Of a stretch of 12,971 nt of DNA, positions 4,326-12,339 are shown piece after piece (position 1 is the stretch's first letter; every line of letters begins with the position of its first letter). Made by a program: the position numbers and the translations under genes. The stretch is taken from IMG/VR virus record IMGVR_UViG_2718218128_000005; one strand, written 5' to 3'. The notes under the pieces were generated by a model. That model did not search any database. It saw only the letters and a list, made by a program, of their open reading frames with translations, and had not been told where the DNA came from. This stretch comes from a virus (Duplodnaviria; Heunggongvirae; Uroviricota; Caudoviricetes).

Positions 4326-5423
4326 ATGAAAAAATTAACAGTGGCAATTTCTGCTGTAGCTGCATCAGTACTGATGGCGATGTCTGCTCAGGCAGCTGAA
4401 ATTTATAATAAAGACAGTAACAAGCTGGATCTGTACGGGAAAGTTAATGCCAAGCACTACTTCTCCTCTAATGATGCAGATGATGGTGATACTACTTATG
4501 CCCGTCTTGGCTTCAAAGGTGAAACCCAAATCAACGATCAACTGACTGGTTTCGGTCAGTGGGAATATGAATTCAAAGGCAACCGCGCTGAATCTCAAGG
4601 TTCCTCCAAAGACAAAACCCGTCTTGCATTTGCAGGCCTGAAATTCGGTGACTACGGCTCAATCGATTACGGCCGTAACTACGGTGTAGCATACGACATC
4701 GGTGCGTGGACTGACGTTCTGCCAGAATTCGGTGGCGATACCTGGACCCAAACAGATGTGTTCATGACTGGTCGCACCACTGGTGTTGCAACCTATCGTA
4801 ACAACGACTTCTTTGGTCTGGTTGATGGTCTGAACTTTGCTGCTCAGTACCAAGGCAAAAACGATCGTAGCGATTTCGATAACTACACTGAAGGTAACGG
4901 TGATGGCTTCGGTTTCTCTGCTACCTATGAATACGAAGGATTCGGTATCGGTGCAACTTATGCGAAATCTGATCGTACCGACACTCAAGTTAATGCAGGG
5001 AAAGTTCTTCCTGAAGTATTTGCTTCCGGTAAAAATGCAGAAGTTTGGGCCGCAGGTCTGAAATATGACGCTAACAACATTTACCTGGCCACTACCTATT
5101 CTGAAACCCAGAATATGACTGTATTTGCTGATCACTTCGTTGCTAATAAAGCCCAAAACTTCGAAGCTGTTGCACAATATCAGTTCGATTTCGGTCTGCG
5201 TCCGTCCGTTGCTTACCTGCAATCTAAAGGTAAAGATCTTGGAGTATGGGGCGATCAGGACTTAGTCAAATATGTTGATGTAGGTGCAACCTATTACTTC
5301 AACAAAAATATGTCTACTTTCGTTGATTACAAAATCAACCTGCTTGACAAAAATGACTTCACTAAAGCACTCGGTGTAAGCACTGATGACATCGTTGCTG
5401 TAGGTCTGGTTTACCAGTTCTAA
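4326..5423 (+). CDS. nmpC: Outer-membrane general porin, NmpC/Lc (OmpC/OmpF family), apparently intact, 365 aa
   Basis: Signal peptide ending [10 protein letters not shown], general-porin-like sequence and the terminal ...VGLVYQF. It lies between Q and the lysis genes on the opposite strand, as nmpC does in DLP12. Confidence 0.93.
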
Positions 5424-6868: not shown

Positions 6869-7031
6869 GATTCCTCCTTGCTGCCAGTCGCAACCATTTT
6901 TTATCAACCAGGCTAGCGGTATATCCGAGCAGTGTTGGTATTTCGGATGGCTTCGGCTCAGGCTTACGCTTACGACGATTTGATACTCTGTAGATGTGTC
7001 CGTTCATGACACGAATAAGCGGTGTAGCCAT
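6861..7031 (-). CDS. ninE: NinE, 56 aa
   Basis: My translation (ATG 7031-7029 to stop 6863-6861) is [56 protein letters not shown]. It is below the track's size cut-off; its start overlaps the ybcN stop (TAATG) and its end overlaps the ybcO start. Confidence 0.8.
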   Translation of the reverse strand: MATPLIRVMNGHIYRVSNRRKRKPEPKPSEIPTLLGYTASLVDKKWLRLAARRNHG

Positions 7032-7486
7032 TACGCCTCCTGCTTGTCACGGAGCAGCTGGAACTCGCAGCTCTGCGGAATAGTCAGGTGGCAGCCAATA
7101 TTCACCGCCCAGGCTTCAACCTTACACAGGAAGACATACATCTCTCCGGTATCAAGATCGGAGGTATGGCGTAACGACTGGATAGTGGTGATATCACCGG
7201 TTACGACATCAACCAGGTCTTTGGTTTCATAACCGAGATATGTGTGTTTGAGAGCATCTTTTACCCAAGCTGGAGTGGCGAACGTTTTACCCCTGTTGAT
7301 GAGGTATTCACTGATTTCGCTGTACCACATGTGGCTGAGTGCATTCTGGGAAAGACTGCGTTTCTCACGCCACGGTTTAAGCACCATGCGAAAGCATTTG
7401 CCCTCCTCCAGATAAGGCTGGATCTGCCGACCGATAGCGGTGAAGTTACCGCGATGTAATTTGATGCCATCTTGTGGGAGATTCAC
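7031..7486 (-). CDS. ybcN: YbcN-like nin-region protein, 151 aa
   Basis: 151 aa with a GTG start at 7486-7484 preceded by GGAGGTG. Size and position match DLP12 ybcN. Confidence 0.85.
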
Positions 7487-7682
7487 GCTTCACCTCCGCA
7501 GAGGTCAAACGCTGGATGCAAAAAATCGCAGGTGCATCTCTGCATCTGTGAAGGGAGAAGAGAGTTTGGATTGTATGTGCGCATAAACGTCCCCGTTTAG
7601 CGCAGAAGTCACCGGAGTTGTTCAGGCTCCGATGACATGATTATGGCAAAATGATTATGTAAAATCAAAAGCCAAAAAACAA

Positions 7683-8612
7683 TTATGGTTTATTTTCTAG
7701 CTCTGATTTTTTGAAAGCTTCTATCAGACGATTAGCATCTTCTGTACCACCAGGAAGCACGTTTGATTTTTTAAGAATATACGGTGGGAACTTTGTGGTT
7801 AAATATTCATGCTTAAACCATCTACGAAACTCTGACAATGCAGAATCAGGATAGGCATTAATGATCTGAGGATTGGAACTTGCCTGAAGAAAATCTTCAG
7901 GGTAATAATGCTCACAGTCTACTCTTTCTCCAAATTCTGTTGCTAACCCCTTTGCTTTCCAGTGACGCGCCCAGCAAGAACCAACACTGCCATCAGGTAC
8001 GGTATGCTGATTAATCGCTAATCCAGCATTGATGAGATCTACCATCATACCTGCAATTTCATTAAATATAATGAAATACCCATCAGGTATGGTTCCCTTA
8101 TCTTTTAATAAAGATACTCTGTCATGGTAATGCCTCCACGGGTCCTCCGGTTGATATTTTAGCGCCTCGTATATAAATGTCTTGAGGCCTTTTTTAGCAA
8201 GCTCTCTGTAAGATCTAATTGCAGTCTCACTTTCTGCTTGTTTTGCTTCAAAGGCATAGTATTCAAGTATAGCCATGCATACAACATCTGGATAAGCATG
8301 GTACTCAACACCATTTCGAATTATTGGTATATAAAGTTTTTCATCTGTAAAACCTTCATTAAGAAGATATGTACCAATAAAAGTCATTCTTCCTTTTTTG
8401 AAAATACCGTTCTCAACGGATTGAGCCCACTCATCGGTAATTTCCTTGATTCGCAAACGCTGAACACCACAAACATTTGCCAACCCATTCTGAGTAAGGT
8501 ACGGAATTCCGTTATCGAGTACCCCCATTTCTATACCGTTAATGACAGCCTCTTGCTTAACATCTAAGTCTAAAGGTATGGATCTGAGGGAGGTAGTTCT
8601 CTGTTGTGCCAT
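7683..8612 (-). CDS. AT-rich cargo gene of unknown function, 309 aa; candidate anti-phage/abortive-infection protein with a possible KilA-N/APSES-like N-terminal domain (BstA-like architecture is a hypothesis)
   Basis: Long ORF with ATG at 8612-8610 preceded by AGGA at 6-nt spacing (the track ORF starts 5 codons earlier at TTG). The N-terminal stretch VINGIEMGVLDNGIPYLTQNGLANVCGV resembles the DG-x-x-W-V-N-A-T-x-I-L-K-A-A-G core of KilA-N/APSES domains. The gene looks markedly more AT-rich than the flanking phage genes. The confidence given is for a real CDS, not for the functional call. Confidence 0.7.
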   Translation of the reverse strand: MAQQRTTSLRSIPLDLDVKQEAVINGIEMGVLDNGIPYLTQNGLANVCGVQRLRIKEITDEWAQSVENGIFKKGRMTFIGTYLLNEGFTDEKLYIPIIRNGVEYHAYPDVVCMAILEYYAFEAKQAESETAIRSYRELAKKGLKTFIYEALKYQPEDPWRHYHDRVSLLKDKGTIPDGYFIIFNEIAGMMVDLINAGLAINQHTVPDGSVGSCWARHWKAKGLATEFGERVDCEHYYPEDFLQASSNPQIINAYPDSALSEFRRWFKHEYLTTKFPPYILKKSNVLPGGTEDANRLIEAFKKSELENKP

Positions 8613-8816: not shown

Positions 8817-9134
8817 CTAACAGATTTGACGCAAATACGGCAATACTCGACTCCACTTATCATCCTGCCACGGCTGAAGTTTTACATGTGCCGTTTCTCG
8901 GACGAGGATTGCTCGCGCTCTGTTGAGTATCTGGGGATATTCTTGCTCGATGGAAGTGAAGTGACCAGCTTCACCATGCTCCGCATCCTGAAGAAGATGA
9001 GTAACGTTCTGGTAGGCAATTAACATCACATTCCCTGCTCGCCATAACCAGGCGAGTGTGCAAAGTTCGTTATCAGTGAATTGTTTTGTGATTGGGGATT
9101 GTTGAACTGCTAGAACGAGAACGCCAGCATCCAT
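8817..9134 (-). CDS. Hypothetical protein, 105 aa, upstream of the 309-aa cargo gene
   Basis: ORF bounded by a stop 3 codons upstream of its ATG, with a weak AGGGA Shine-Dalgarno sequence. No family recognised. It looks more GC-rich than its AT-rich flanks, so it could be a remnant or a real small gene. Confidence 0.4.
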   Translation of the reverse strand: MDAGVLVLAVQQSPITKQFTDNELCTLAWLWRAGNVMLIAYQNVTHLLQDAEHGEAGHFTSIEQEYPQILNRARAILVRETAHVKLQPWQDDKWSRVLPYLRQIC

Positions 9135-9245
9135 TGGCAGTCCCTATAGTAAAACCATAGCTCAGGACGCTTCGTTCAGGATAGATAATTTTATTGTACT
9201 TACCTAACTTTCTTACTATAGCACGGTTGAAAAAGTGATTATTAC

Positions 9246-10772
9246 TCAAAAATAAACCTCACCATCAACCATATATTTGAGAGTACTTATCGCCTGCTGG
9301 GCGGATATTGTTTTCATTAAAGGATAGTGTTTAAAAACAATGCCATTCATAAAATAGATATCACAGGTTTTATTATCTGTATTGATTATGATTTTTTCGA
9401 ATGTTTTATAGGCAAGTGTACGACATAGCTCTCGCCCATTTTTACTGGTTAAGTCAATAGCATGAAAATCACCAAGTGAGCTCACCGCTTTACTCTTCAA
9501 AGTTTTTAATGATACAGAAGCCCTTCGTAATTCCTTATCTAATACTCTGATTTTTTCTGCTATAGCGGTAACTTCAGGCGCAACAGATAATGCAGCAATT
9601 AAATTATTAATTTTCATCTGGAGCTCAATAATTTTCAACTCTAAAGTTTCATTAGCATCTTTCTTGTTTTCAACTGGTTGGATTTTACTACAATTAAAAA
9701 GCAACTCATTAATGATATTATAATCAACCAAATCTCTCTTTATTGATGGCCTGTCACATCGATGCAGTCTTCTCATCGGACAAACATAATAGCCATGCAA
9801 ACTTCCAGATACCGCATGAACAATCATGGTATTACCACAAGCCTCGCACTTCATAACTGTTCGAAGTAGATTTATCAACATAGGGTTTTTGCTACTATTG
9901 CTAATACCAAAAGGTGCCAACCGAATTTCCTGCACAGCGTAAAACAAATCATCTGATATGACTCTGGGATAATAGCCAGCGATTTCACTTATTCCTTTAC
10001 CTCTTGCACGATATGAAGGTACGCATATACCTATCAGAGCTTTATTCGCTAATAATTTTTCAATTACAGAAGGTCCCCATGCACTTTCTTTTCCTGAGAA
10101 ATTCTTTACAGCATGATCATTTAAATACTTGGCTATTGCATTCAATGAGCGCCTTTCCATCCTGAGTTTAAAAATTAGCTCAATAGTTTTCACCCTGTCG
10201 GGGTCTGGAACAAAAGCCGTTCTTTTGTCATCTAAGGAGAGCCATCTCGGACAAGACGCCGTCATAATCGTGCCTGACTCCAGTGCATCCTGCCGTTTTT
10301 TCTTCCATGATAATTTAACCCGACTTGACTTTATCTCGCTTTCTTCATTTGCCCTTTGTGCTATAAGTATGGCTTTTATTAATGAATATGGATCATTCAA
10401 AGAGTCAATATTATAGACTGTATTATCGCAAAGAGTTATAACATCAATACCGTGATTCAAAATCAATTTCAGACGCTCAATCGCTTCACCGACTTTTTCT
10501 CTTGAAAGTCTGTCCAGACTTTCAACTAACAATGTAGTTCCTGGCAATATATAACCATGCTCTATAGCATCTAAAAATTCCGAAAAAGCTCCTGATTGTG
10601 CATGCTTTCCTTTGAATGCACTTAATCCTAAATCTTCATATGTTATGGTATCAAGATAATAATCACTATTTACCTTTAACCATTCAGCAATAAGTCTTCT
10701 CTGTCGGTTTAATGAGTCGCCAGACATCTGACCTGGTGATGAAAATCGCATATATGCTATGGCTTTTTTCAT
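9246..10772 (-). CDS. ybcK: Large serine recombinase (resolvase/invertase N-terminal catalytic domain plus recombinase and zinc-ribbon regions), 508 aa (YbcK-like)
   Basis: N-terminus AIAYMRFSSPGQ... carries the serine-recombinase catalytic Ser motif, and there is a Cys cluster (CEACGN...YYVCP...HRC). AGGTG Shine-Dalgarno sequence; 508 aa equals the DLP12 YbcK length. Confidence 0.9.
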   Translation of the reverse strand: MKKAIAYMRFSSPGQMSGDSLNRQRRLIAEWLKVNSDYYLDTITYEDLGLSAFKGKHAQSGAFSEFLDAIEHGYILPGTTLLVESLDRLSREKVGEAIERLKLILNHGIDVITLCDNTVYNIDSLNDPYSLIKAILIAQRANEESEIKSSRVKLSWKKKRQDALESGTIMTASCPRWLSLDDKRTAFVPDPDRVKTIELIFKLRMERRSLNAIAKYLNDHAVKNFSGKESAWGPSVIEKLLANKALIGICVPSYRARGKGISEIAGYYPRVISDDLFYAVQEIRLAPFGISNSSKNPMLINLLRTVMKCEACGNTMIVHAVSGSLHGYYVCPMRRLHRCDRPSIKRDLVDYNIINELLFNCSKIQPVENKKDANETLELKIIELQMKINNLIAALSVAPEVTAIAEKIRVLDKELRRASVSLKTLKSKAVSSLGDFHAIDLTSKNGRELCRTLAYKTFEKIIINTDNKTCDIYFMNGIVFKHYPLMKTISAQQAISTLKYMVDGEVYF

Positions 10773-10954
10773 GGTGACACCTGCTAACGTATGCTTCTAT
10801 AAACCTTAGTGGTGAGATATAATTTTTGTTTAATTTTTATTTAAAAAGACAATTAAGGTCACATTATCTTGAATATACAACAATAATCGTATTGCAATTT
10901 TCTTACGCCATAATCTTGAAAGCACAAAAGAATACATAAAAAAATAAAGACATT

Positions 10955-10997
10955 AACAAAAAGCATAAAACGAGGCTCATATAAATATAAGAGCCTC
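10955..10997 (-). terminator. Intrinsic terminator downstream of emrE (minus strand)
   Basis: Stem GAGGCTC(10972-10978)/GAGCCTC(10991-10997) with a 12-nt AT loop. On the minus strand it is followed by GTTTTATGCTTTTTG. Confidence 0.4.
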
Positions 10998-11028
10998 CAT
11001 ATTTTAGTCGTTTAGAAACAAATTATTT

Positions 11029-11361
11029 TTAATGTGGTGTGCTTCGTGACAATAAATTAATAACCAACACACCGGCACAAATCAACATCATGCCTATAAT
11101 GGCTGGCAGGTCCAGCCGTTGGCCGAAAAATCCCCATGACAGTAAGCTAATCAGGACAATACCGACTCCTGACCAGATAGCATAAGCAATCCCTGTAGGA
11201 ATATAAGCCAGCGTCTGAGCTAATAACCAGAATGATGCACAATAACAAATAATTGTACCAACAGATGGCCATAACCGTGTAAAACCTTCTGAAAACTTCA
11301 TTAAGGTTGTACCAATGACCTCTGCAAGTATTGCACCACCAAGATAAATATAAGGGTTCAT
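11029..11361 (-). CDS. emrE: EmrE small multidrug resistance (SMR) efflux transporter, 110 aa
   Basis: From ATG 11361-11359 the translation MNPYIYLGGAILAEVIGTTLMKFSEGF...LLSRSTPH matches EmrE as I remember it, with four transmembrane segments. The track ORF starts 18 codons upstream. Confidence 0.95.
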   Translation of the reverse strand: MNPYIYLGGAILAEVIGTTLMKFSEGFTRLWPSVGTIICYCASFWLLAQTLAYIPTGIAYAIWSGVGIVLISLLSWGFFGQRLDLPAIIGMMLICAGVLVINLLSRSTPH

Positions 11362-11428
11362 AGCATATTCTTTCCTGTTCAAACTGGAGAGAATTGTACT
11401 ACAGTTTGAAATCAACTCACCTGTTTCA

Positions 11429-11731
11429 TCATTGTGTACCCATTGATGTTCTTTTATATACCCTCAATACGCGTTTCATCGCGGCACTCTGGCGACACTC
11501 CTTAAAAATCAGATTCGTGCTCACCTTTCCTTCCCGTTCTTCTCTGGTAGCGAACCGGTAATACACCGTTCGCCAGACCTTACCATCAACGACCAGGATT
11601 CCTGCCCGCGCCATTTTAGCCGCAGCCTGATTTATGCTGGTTACGGTTGCGCCTGTTACCGCGGCAACGTCCTGTGCACAGAAGCTCTTATGCGTCCCCA
11701 GGTAATGAATAATTGCCTCTTTGCCCGTCAT
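11429..11731 (-). CDS. ren: Ren (lambda Ren-like), 100 aa
   Basis: MTGKEAIIHYLGTH...KVWRTVYYRFATREEREGK... is near-identical to lambda Ren as I remember it. Its ATG overlaps the P stop (ATGA). Confidence 0.9.
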   Translation of the reverse strand: MTGKEAIIHYLGTHKSFCAQDVAAVTGATVTSINQAAAKMARAGILVVDGKVWRTVYYRFATREEREGKVSTNLIFKECRQSAAMKRVLRVYKRTSMGTQ

Positions 11732-12339
11732 ACACTTGCTCCTTTCAGTCCGAACTTAGCTTTAATTTCTGCGATCTTCGCCAGAGCCTGTGCACGATTT
11801 AGAGGTCTACCGCCCATAACAGGAAGTTGTTTTACTGGTTCAGGGATCGCCTCACCACGGTTAATTCTCGCAGTCATATGGACAAGCTCATCTGCGGCCT
11901 TACGGCGTAATTCCGCATCAGTAAGCGCATTGGCCCGCATGTTCTGATACAGGTTGGTAACCAGCCAGTAGTGCGCGTTTGATTTCCACGGATAAGACTC
12001 CGCATCCGGATACAGGCCTCGCTTCCGGCAATACTCGTAAACCATATCAACCAGCTCGCTGACGTTTGGCAGTCCGGCGATAACGGATGCTTCTTCCCGG
12101 CACCATGCAACAAACTGCCCGGGTGATGGCAGAAATGGTCGATTCTGCCGACGGGCTACGCGCATTCCAGCGTTAACCTGTTCCATTGTGGTGATCCCGT
12201 TTTCCCGGAAAGCCAGAACCCACTGGCGGCGGATTTCGTTCAGTTCATTCTGGTCACGGTTAGCCAGGCTCGCCGGGAAAGTTGCCAGTAACTGGCTGAA
12301 CACACCATTGATGATCTGCGCTACCTGCTGTACCAGCGG
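11728..12339 (-). pseudogene. P: Replication protein P (lambda P, DnaB helicase loader), N-terminally truncated
   Basis: The track protein ...FSQLLATFPASLANRDQNE...KAKFGLKGASV matches the C-terminal roughly 190 aa of lambda P as I remember it. The frame stays open upstream only to a stop at 12340-12342 and has no in-frame ATG; the track start at 12303 is a GTG encoding an internal Val. The first ~45 residues of P, and the gene O upstream, are absent. Confidence 0.85.

Follow-up and report, generated by a model that had tools for sequence, protein, structure and literature searches.

The emrE-ybcK locus

The window, that is the whole stretch of 12,971 nucleotides analysed here, belongs to a prophage of the DLP12 type, a lambda-like, defective prophage of Escherichia coli adjoining the tRNA-Arg gene argU. 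The DNA of ybcK and emrE is a 100% match to annotated ybcK and emrE on E. coli chromosomes, and the locus as such is already annotated (E. coli b0543/b0544 in prophage DLP12). Both genes are situated in an AT-rich insert of approximately 2.3 kb (window ~9165-11455), which is placed between ren and the nin genes (Table 1). The GC content is 35.6% for the insert overall, 36.2% for ybcK, 41.4% for emrE and 27.0% for the spacer between them, as compared to about 50% in the flanking genes (P' 53.1%, ren 50.5%, ybcN 50.2%). For 2.3 kb this gap is far beyond sampling noise. A preceding sequence-only reading had described an AT-rich cargo block inside a prophage, in which the gene of a 508-aa large serine recombinase (LSR) adjoins that of the SMR pump EmrE, and this description holds for composition, setting and both gene identities. 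P' of the upstream flank is labelled 'replication protein P, incomplete' in the annotation of an identical genome.

Table 1. Features of the ren-ninB region in window coordinates
Feature	Position	Strand	Description	Evidence or remark
ylcH-ybcN	7031..7670	-	ninB-like module	upstream edge 7669/7670
bstA	7683..8612	-	BstA-family abortive-infection defence gene	PADLOC PDLC02356 3.6e-121, profile 5-291/292
rha'	8817..9134	-	C-terminal remnant of a Rha/antirepressor-like gene	P22AR_C domain, Pfam 8e-14
ybcK tail	9165..9245	-	~80-bp tail 3' of ybcK	common to all alleles, identity falling
ybcK	9246..10772	-	large serine recombinase, 508 aa	Pfam domains and motifs
spacer / ybcK leader	10773..11028	-	256 bp, 27% GC	sequence comparison
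ylcJ	10830..10980	-	small ORF	frameshifted in the window by one extra T
hairpin + U-tract	10972..10998	-	read as emrE intrinsic terminator	RNA fold -14 kcal/mol, z = -3.1
emrE	11029..11361	-	SMR multidrug/quaternary-cation efflux pump, 110 aa	Pfam Multi_Drug_Res
ren	11429..11731	-		left insert edge lies in its last codons
P'	11728..12303	-	5'-truncated replication gene P; backbone, upstream flank	Pfam Phage_lambda_P 1e-60

Compared to DLP12 of E. coli K-12, ybcK shows 96.8% nucleotide identity, a single aa is changed in EmrE, and the neighbours are the same, with ren upstream and ylcH-ybcN downstream. In K-12, ybcL-ybcM follow ybcK, whereas the window has rha'-bstA at this place. Moreover, ren is split by IS3 in K-12, and the frameshift in ylcJ sets the window apart.

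To delimit the insert, we compared the window to K-12, O157, the phages Perceval, Turner, PhiR5_1 and IdasGreatGrand, and Nissle 1917. Phages lacking emrE/ybcK cease to be homologous at 11456 (the breaks are at 11456/11486 in PhiR5_1 and IdasGreatGrand), and the insert has its left edge there; neither of these two phages has the insert at this position. The ren/emrE edge is identical in all alleles. Beyond the ybcK tail the alleles are unrelated, K-12 from near 9165 and O157 from 9180. The full-length Rha of phage PhiR5_1 aligns from 9121, and rha' lies outside the ybcK unit. We rejected the possibility that the insert had split rha, since no 5' piece of rha is found between ren and emrE; this indicates a replacement and not a simple insertion.

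The slot downstream of ybcK, bounded by the 3' end of rha' and the ylcH/ninB module, is hypervariable, and bstA is one of its 12 alleles. The sequence-only reading had listed an unknown gene at the position of bstA. The gene exists, but it is a recognizable defence gene, as judged by a full-length, prophage-encoded family match with PADLOC. BstA is typically encoded downstream of cI (PMC8585504); in the window it lies in the nin region instead. The right edge of the slot is fixed at 7669/7670 in every comparison, and the left breakpoints are scattered (9180, 8961-8968, 8920 and 8819-8829). The slot varies likewise in phages without ybcK. Slot variation, and with it bstA, is independent of ybcK.

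emrE is a moron with its own predicted terminator

SMR pumps are proteins of about 110 aa with four transmembrane helices, a membrane-embedded Glu14 and the PF00893 domain. EmrE of the window has the expected length, matches Multi_Drug_Res (PF00893, 3e-35) with residues 21-112 of a 128-aa ORF (corresponding to EmrE 3-94), and Glu14 is present, as read directly from the sequence. The gene was found in 3,692 of 5,426 E. coli genomes; besides the genomes with ybcK, 2,285 carry an emrE allele of 90-95% identity. Sampled loci of the latter allele break off 8 bp past the emrE stop (11021/11020) and are devoid of ybcK, as is Nissle 1917.

The hairpin with U-tract downstream of emrE is predicted to place emrE and ybcK in separate transcription units. 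It was found by separate folding and was missed by consensus scans for promoters and terminators, which did not exceed shuffled background. An insert between phage modules, deviant GC content, a terminator on emrE and absence from related phages are features of an accessory cassette, and emrE is best read as a classic moron, expressed in the lysogen from the prophage. The locus shares the AT-rich insertion between conserved modules and the own terminator, here on emrE, with the lambdoid morons bor, lom, sitABCD and EmrE of the temperate coliphages 4C10/4A7 and Perceval. ybcK differs from these, because it is Rho-silenced and encodes a DNA recombinase, and hence is no typical lysogen-expressed fitness gene. 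That lambda-like phages can carry emrE is already published: EmrE was noted as a rare resistance-type gene of lambda-like phages (PMC6969025) and as an inducible moron of Perceval, an active prophage (PMC9928086). Perceval carries ren-emrE-ybcK together with its own tyrosine Int and Xis.

YbcK is a large serine recombinase

Three Pfam domains of LSRs are found in YbcK: Resolvase (PF00239, 5e-19), Recombinase (PF07508, 2e-14) and Zn_ribbon_recom (PF13408, 8e-8). A catalytic domain is followed by a recombinase domain, a Cys4 zinc ribbon, a coiled coil and a small C-terminal domain, so that the catalytic as well as the C-terminal features of LSRs are present. The catalytic motifs are YMRFSS (R9, S11) and SLDRLSRE (D87, R88, R91), and the zinc-ribbon cysteines are C309, C312, C331 and C339. 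None of these residues varies among 17 homologues (41-62% identity) and 86 E. coli loci. A mutated active-site serine had been proposed earlier as the sign of a dead enzyme; S11 and its partners are intact, as is the catalytic apparatus as a whole, judged from its residues.

The AlphaFold model of YbcK (pLDDT 78.8) contains long helices at 346-430, and in Foldseek it matches the full-length serine integrases 9dxd, 9y66, PhiC31 and Bxb1 with E-values of 1e-18 to 1e-14. The fold search was needed, as a sequence search of the PDB with the single YbcK protein or with a profile yielded no LSR match. In NCBIfam, the single match of YbcK is XisF, and it is weak (48 bits versus a cut-off of 375).

Concerning the known systems, YbcK has the same domain order as the phage serine integrases (PhiC31 Int, Bxb1 gp35, Listeria A118/LI Int, TP901-1 Int), including the long alpha-E helix, and the nucleophilic serine and the Arg/Asp residues are conserved. 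However, identity to these is only 13-19%, the phages with ybcK carry a separate tyrosine Int/Xis, and ybcK is prophage-internal and away from the attachment junction, flanked left and right by phage genes in 80 of 80 loci, and thus lacks the position at an element boundary. The LSR architecture is also shared with the excision LSRs (XisF, SpoIVCA, SprA and the transposon LSRs TnpX/TndX). YbcK differs from them by its score far under the XisF family cut-off, and neither an interrupted host gene nor an excisable element is delimited at ybcK. With the small serine invertases (PinE, PinQ, PinR; Hin/Gin/Cin), YbcK has the serine-recombinase catalytic domain and the location in cryptic prophages in common. 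Those proteins, however, comprise approximately 190 aa with a C-terminal HTH, whereas YbcK has 508 aa and LSR domains, and it is not a member of the small-invertase group.

ybcK is conserved at a fixed position

ybcK was found in 1,423 genomes, with the emrE-ylcJ-ybcK junction intact in 1,401 of them, and never apart from emrE. Presence and absence of ybcK, relative to emrE-ybcL, correspond to a clean indel of 2,083 bp with the microhomology AATAAT at both junctions, which is compatible with insertion as well as with deletion; an emrE-ybcL-ybcM locus without ybcK occurs in other E. coli. In K-12, a Rho/NusG-dependent terminator is located in the untranslated region upstream of ybcK (PMC4150792). 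The gene is co-oriented with the early-right operon. Solvent tolerance upon overexpression is the only phenotype on record for YbcK (PMC7181518), and our literature search retrieved neither a recombinase function nor an experimental report of integration or excision for it.

Constant linkage to emrE, Rho silencing in K-12 and a phenotype record without recombinase activity would all fit a functionless hitch-hiker or decaying pseudogene, held by its linkage to emrE only. We consider this very unlikely. With dS reaching up to 0.18, ybcK alleles show a dN/dS of 0.06-0.09, diverged allele pairs differ by 36-52 synonymous versus 11-13.5 nonsynonymous changes, the full ORF is kept in 86 of 87 sampled E. 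coli loci, and the motifs are intact in all of the 33 YbcK protein variants; this is the pattern of a gene under purifying selection. Moreover, emrE thrives without ybcK in 2,285 genomes, so that linkage alone does not account for the retention of ybcK. A mere passenger would hardly be expected to combine strong purifying selection with an unchanging position, which hints at a function at the level of the phage.

Recombination sites and rearrangements

Attachment sites of LSRs comprise about 40-50 bp with an imperfect dyad and a 2-bp crossover and usually lie next to the gene; Hin/Gin/Pin-type invertases act on inverted crossover sites flanking a tail-fibre segment. Between 6800 and 12400, the search for direct and inverted repeats revealed only short pairs of low identity inside genes, none at the insert edges and none above chance. 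Nor was a conserved dyad-symmetric site found next to ybcK, where the conserved tail is present but no dyad or repeat exceeds chance. Among the members of the YbcK family, no motif is shared in the 110 bp downstream or the 150 bp upstream of the gene. The inverted pair CTATAGTAA...TTACTATAG downstream of ybcK was dismissed as a possible att site, as about 60 bp separate its arms and the second of them is reached only after the K-12 and O157 alleles have diverged.

All of 80 IMG/VR loci, and all classes sampled from 5,426 genomes, have the order ren-emrE-ybcK-[slot]-ninB with unchanged gene orientation. In neither set was an inverted arrangement found, nor a prophage permuted at ybcK with adjoining host DNA; the genome survey covers sampled classes of 1,528 genomic ybcK copies, from which rare rearrangements would escape.

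These results bear on the proposal of the sequence-only reading that the recombinase could flip or mobilise adjacent cargo as an invertase or excisionase, here emrE, rha' and bstA. Serine recombinases do include invertases, Pin enzymes of cryptic prophages do invert DNA in E. coli (PMC12529663), and the cargo next to ybcK differs among strains. The structural variation which that reading had named as a test exists. It is not of the kind expected from YbcK, as its breakpoints are scattered and it occurs in phages without ybcK as well. Cognate sites, its other test, were not found around the block, where no repeat pair exceeds chance. Given these results, the constant gene order and the size class of the protein, we regard the proposal as highly improbable and infer that emrE, rha' and bstA are neither inverted nor mobilised by YbcK.

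Relatives of YbcK and the origin of the insert

Relatives of YbcK are found at the ends of prophages or islands, the usual position of an integrase, in Atlantibacter (next to ssrA), Ewingella (L094), Yersinia (L007) and Pantoea dispersa (L021). In two further lambdoid lineages, in Atlantibacter and Pantoea, genes of the YbcK clade follow shortly after P, which argues against a one-off accidental capture. In Pantoea alvi, an LSR of 48% identity is flanked by an intact P-orf112 on one side and a decayed P' fragment on the other, and the same LSR (97% aa identity) lies in P. dispersa at the edge of an AAA_25 island by host genes. The DNA common to both loci stops 56 bp past the stop codon, and the gene, together with upstream and downstream stretches of about 221 bp and 56 bp, constitutes a discrete unit that moves between Pantoea contexts. 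In Atlantibacter, the LSRs from a prophage end (L005) and from a nin region (L016) are 83% identical and have only the gene plus 68 bp in common. No DNA is common to the flanks of ybcK and those of its Atlantibacter and Yersinia homologues, and tBLASTn with a panel of phage proteins left the majority of the distant family loci unclassified. We dropped the idea of gene P as a target of YbcK-type elements, as it applies to one Pantoea locus only and P-ren is continuous in DLP12-type phages.

Two further explanations draw on these relatives. ybcK with an adjacent attP, in the tail or in the 256-bp leader, might constitute a second integration module of DLP12/Perceval-type phages, expressed as a delayed-early gene and providing an alternative integrase and attachment site. 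The integrase positions of the clade relatives, the intact and selected YbcK, its orientation along the early-right operon and the Pantoea unit, which resembles an int-attP cassette, are in line with this. Nevertheless we consider it unlikely, because no prophage permuted at ybcK beside host DNA was encountered in the 80 loci or the sampled genome classes, neither a conserved dyad by ybcK nor a downstream motif common to the family was found, and these phages already possess tyrosine Int/Xis. Alternatively, an LSR-borne element, possibly with emrE, may have entered a lambdoid phage after the replication genes and then decayed to its integrase end, in which case the homology break approximately 80 bp past the ybcK stop would be an old attR. 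The Pantoea loci with their 56-bp shared end, the Atlantibacter pair and the clean 2,083-bp indel are what such a relic would leave. Decay is to be expected of it, though, whereas ybcK has a dN/dS of ~0.07 and is intact in nearly all loci; furthermore, the unit ends carry no terminal inverted half-sites, and the ren/emrE edge is the same in all alleles. A nested relic is thus improbable, too.

Proposed role of the locus

The explanation which we favour, and hold to be probable, is that the ren-ninB region is a hot spot for accessory genes which took up an AT-rich insert with two separately transcribed passengers, the moron emrE and ybcK, a supernumerary integrase-type recombinase that is Rho-silenced and kept by selection. 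The phage would integrate at argU or elsewhere by its own tyrosine integrase, and ybcK would be an additional, internal recombinase. In the lysogen, the Rho-dependent terminator in the leader would keep ybcK off, so that YbcK would be produced chiefly upon antitermination of early-right transcription. Its conservation suggests that YbcK still recombines DNA. It would do so by conservative site-specific recombination, with attack by Ser11, 2-bp staggered cuts and subunit rotation, and its substrates would presumably be att-type sites of about 40-50 bp and not a repeated pair flanking the block. Most likely, the insert originated by capture, next to emrE, of the integrase end of some other phage or element.

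More tentatively, YbcK-clade LSRs might be a phage-selected accessory of a lambdoid subgroup (the DLP12/Perceval type of E. coli, Atlantibacter and Pantoea), situated right after the replication genes and moving as a self-contained unit of gene plus flanks of about 1.8-2 kb. They might serve as a portable second integration module, or, upon early antitermination, recombine further DNA, for instance that of competing phages or satellites, or at secondary sites of the host. We offer this as a speculation.

The locus shows that viable temperate coliphages carry a real efflux gene, and that a full-length serine integrase gene has long been kept intact by selection inside phages with their own tyrosine integrase. 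If the sites of YbcK were found, they would provide an E. coli-native LSR/att pair for the genome-engineering toolbox and could expose a second recombination function in the biology of lambdoid phages.

Locus structure and insert edges

The window represents a defective E. coli lambdoid prophage of the DLP12 type in reverse orientation, ending at the stop of an integrase remnant that adjoins the tRNA-Arg gene argU. The ends of the block at 9246-11361 coincide with the ybcK stop and the emrE start. Pfam bears out the sequence-only reading, which had identified ybcK as a large serine recombinase (LSR) gene and emrE as encoding an SMR efflux pump. The block is also AT-rich as claimed, with a GC content of 41.4% in emrE, 27.0% in the spacer, 36.2% in ybcK and 35.6% in the whole insert, versus 50-53% in P', ren and ybcN.

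Features of the locus (window coordinates)
Feature	Position	Strand	Remarks
P'	11728-12303	minus	
ren	11429-11731	minus	
emrE	11029-11361	minus	Pfam SMR family match
ylcJ	about 10830-10980	minus	frameshift from a single additional T within a T-run vs K-12
ybcK	9246-10772	minus	all three Pfam large serine recombinase domains
rha'	8817-9134	minus	105-aa ORF, P22AR C-terminal domain (P22AR_C) only
bstA ("unknown" gene)	7683-8612	minus	309 aa; PADLOC BstA
ylcH and ybcN/ninB	7031-7486	minus	
ninE-ybcO-rusA-ylcG-quuD	after ybcN/ninB	minus	

A stretch of about 2.4 kb, comprising bet', exo/YqaJ, several small genes and a portion of int, is missing at 12331/12332 but retained in the otherwise near-identical strain E400634 (L001 13934-16330). 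The P fragment thereby abuts an integrase C-terminal fragment, and the window prophage is thus more deleted than its close relatives. An NmpC/OmpC-like porin gene (4326-5423, plus strand; 365 aa) is intact, the K-12 DLP12 copy being split by IS5.

Phage PhiR5_1, ordered ren-(small ORFs)-full-length rha-hyp-ninB, lacks emrE and ybcK. It is homologous to the window as far as 11456, within the last ren codons, and then anew from two further points, 9121 (in rha) and 7669. K-12 matches ren-emrE-ybcK until about 9165-9207 and continues with ybcL-ybcM. Homology to the window breaks at 9180 in O157, at 8961 in phage Perceval and at 8829 in phage Turner; these three and K-12 all rejoin at 7669/7670. 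The break positions place the AT-rich insert at about 9165-11455, including a tail of about 80 bp beyond the ybcK stop common to all alleles. A Rha/antirepressor-type gene, full length (249 aa; L009 4562-5311) at this position in PhiR5_1, survives in the window as the 3' remnant rha'; the O157 allele retains just a 37-bp piece of it.

Folding predicts a hairpin with U-tract 3' of emrE (-14 kcal/mol, z = -3.1); in K-12, a Rho/NusG-dependent terminator within the ybcK leader holds the level of ybcK mRNA down (PMC4150792). emrE and ybcK thus form separate, differently regulated transcription units. In the terminator hairpin of emrE, the 3' arm contains the ylcJ start codon.

Gene order and the variable slot

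It had been proposed that YbcK inverts or mobilises adjacent cargo. The order (O) P ren emrE ybcK slot ybcN rusA quuD is constant and co-oriented in 80/80 IMG/VR prophage loci and recurs in the classes sampled from 5,426 genomes. In a search for recombination sites flanking the cargo, the repeat pairs around the block did not exceed chance expectation, and no such pair lay at the insert edges. Structural variation does exist in the slot between the ybcK/rha' side and ylcH/ninB, with at least 12 alleles across 82 loci, including BstA (window), ybcL-ybcM, an alpha/beta hydrolase, several small ORFs, IS insertions and a nearly empty form (O157). However, the left breakpoints are dispersed (9180, 8961-8968, 8920, 8819-8829), and the rha-ninB interval varies also in phages without ybcK. 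In most alleles rha' is present and the differences are confined to the interval from its stop to 7669. Judged from these sequence comparisons, slot turnover is ordinary lambdoid mosaicism, not YbcK site-specific recombination. Constant order and lack of repeats disfavour an invertase or mobiliser role, which we regard as highly improbable.

The "unknown" gene at 7683-8612, suggested as possible mobilised cargo, has no match in Pfam or NCBIfam; it encodes a full-length BstA abortive-infection protein (PADLOC 3.6e-121), a published prophage defence family (PMC8585504), and is one of the slot alleles. Described BstA genes lie downstream of cI (PMC8585504), whereas this one lies in the nin region. 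IS insertions (an IS3-family-like ORF pair) occur downstream of ybcK in two IMG/VR E. coli loci, about 50 bp beyond the ybcK stop (L119; equivalent to window 9195-9197) and inside a K-12-type slot (L175).

YbcK integrity and selection

The YbcK N-terminus, MKKAIAYMRFSS, contains the Arg-x-Ser nucleophile motif, and SLDRLSRE occupies residues 85-92. In an alignment with 16 homologues (41-62% identity) R9, S11, D87, R88, R91, the QRAxEESE helix and four cysteines (C309, C312, C331, C339) are invariant. Structural comparison of the AlphaFold model (mean pLDDT 78.8) recovers full-length serine integrases, with about 530-600 columns aligned (E 1e-18 to 1e-14); integrase-att complexes, PhiC31 and Bxb1 are among the matched structures. 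Sequence alone gave no PDB match, which marks YbcK as a divergent LSR clade. Past the coiled coil, residues ~440-508 are modelled as a confident small alpha/beta domain (pLDDT 83-94); C470, G477 and P484 within it do not vary across the clade.

Among five ybcK alleles (window, K-12, O157, Perceval, Turner) dN/dS is 0.06-0.09, diverged pairs showing 36-52 synonymous and 11-13.5 nonsynonymous changes. The 508-aa ORF is intact in 86/87 E. coli IMG/VR loci, and catalytic motifs are unchanged in all 33 protein variants. A catalytically dead recombinase, which would have spoken against the sequence-only reading, is thus not what these data reveal. By its substitution pattern, ybcK is maintained by selection; that it is a functionless hitch-hiker is contradicted by dN/dS and appears quite improbable. 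In L140, an IMG/VR E. coli locus, ybcK is truncated (231 aa) and the slot holds an IS66-like transposase.

Compared with K-12, the 5' 700 bp of ybcK and its leader are 98-100% identical and the last ~400 bp (window 9246-9700) 88-96%. Whereas the two emrE copies are almost the same (0 synonymous changes), ybcK has a dS of 0.127. Such uneven divergence suggests mosaic recombination within the cassette.

Distribution in E. coli

ybcK was found in 1,423 and emrE in 3,692 of 5,426 complete E. coli genomes. An emrE-ylcJ-ybcK junction probe was fully covered in 1,401; in sampled remaining genomes the match ends 8 bp past the emrE stop. A second emrE class (2,285 genomes) carries an allele of 90-95% nucleotide identity, the diverged lineage being commoner than the ybcK-linked form. 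In Nissle 1917 emrE shows 92.5% nucleotide identity (dS about 0.38), and the locus (L012 6925-10782) is a prophage remnant without ybcK, emrE-ybcL-ybcM-porin lying between fliE and yedK. K-12 has 2,083 additional bp relative to Nissle 1917, namely ylcJ, ybcK and 309 bp, with AATAAT microhomology common to both junctions. ybcK essentially never occurs away from emrE, and independent ybcK mobility within E. coli left no sign.

Relatives in other Enterobacterales

Full-length YbcK homologues (37-61% identity) occur across Enterobacterales, in several cases as the last phage or island gene ahead of host DNA. In Atlantibacter, tail-fibre assembly, two small ORFs and the LSR precede ssrA/smpB; the same layout in Ewingella precedes host metabolic genes. 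In Yersinia the LSR lies at the end of a lambdoid prophage, with the 3' fragment of a tRNA and a P2-like remnant as neighbours, and in Pantoea dispersa it stands beside host genes where a small island encoding an AAA_25 protein ends. These positions fit a putative integrase role. Perceval, which has the same ren-emrE-ybcK block as the window, encodes its own tyrosine Int/Xis and is an active prophage excising at its own att sites (PMC9928086). That ybcK is a functional second integration module seems unlikely to us.

The clade also occurs inside lambdoid prophages, just 3' of replication gene P, as in Atlantibacter RC6 (O-P-...-methylase-LSR-DUF1367-NinG-Q) and Pantoea alvi (P-orf112-antisense LSR-P' pseudogene fragment-...-Q-lysis). 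Viral contigs related to this locus either have no methylase or are themselves more diverged. A 687-aa C5-cytosine methylase gene lies directly upstream of the LSR in the Atlantibacter locus L016 (7985-9658) and not in the 93%-identical contig L179, another indel in the same hot spot. In Candidatus Pantoea alvi (L031 9238-12859) the antisense LSR lies between intact P-orf112 and a decayed second P copy (aa 76-229, 64% amino acid identity, aligned part interrupted by four in-frame stops). An LSR-mediated or illegitimate join within a phage replication gene may have left this footprint.

Although the LSRs of P. alvi and P. dispersa have 97% identity, the sequence common to the two loci is limited to the gene with 221 bp upstream and 56 bp downstream; the two Atlantibacter LSRs (83% identical) have only the gene and 68 bp in common. 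The LSR gene thus moves between contexts as a compact unit. Neither terminal inverted half-sites nor shared flank motifs were found among the relatives, and we hold it similarly unlikely that ybcK is the relic of an element once integrated into the phage.

Interpretation

The locus itself is already known: the genes are annotated in K-12 (b0543, emrE; b0544, ybcK), and EmrE was reported on lambda-like coliphages in 2020 (PMC6969025) and again for Perceval, where ybcK served as qPCR target (PMC9928086). The sole published ybcK phenotype is solvent (sabinene) tolerance upon overexpression (PMC7181518), and the literature records no YbcK recombinase activity. We consider it probable that emrE is a moron expressed in the lysogen and that ybcK is an additional LSR of the integrase type which was captured next to emrE, within an accessory hot spot after the replication genes. 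ybcK would be transcriptionally silenced in the lysogen yet kept by selection, and YbcK would neither invert nor mobilise emrE, rha' or bstA.
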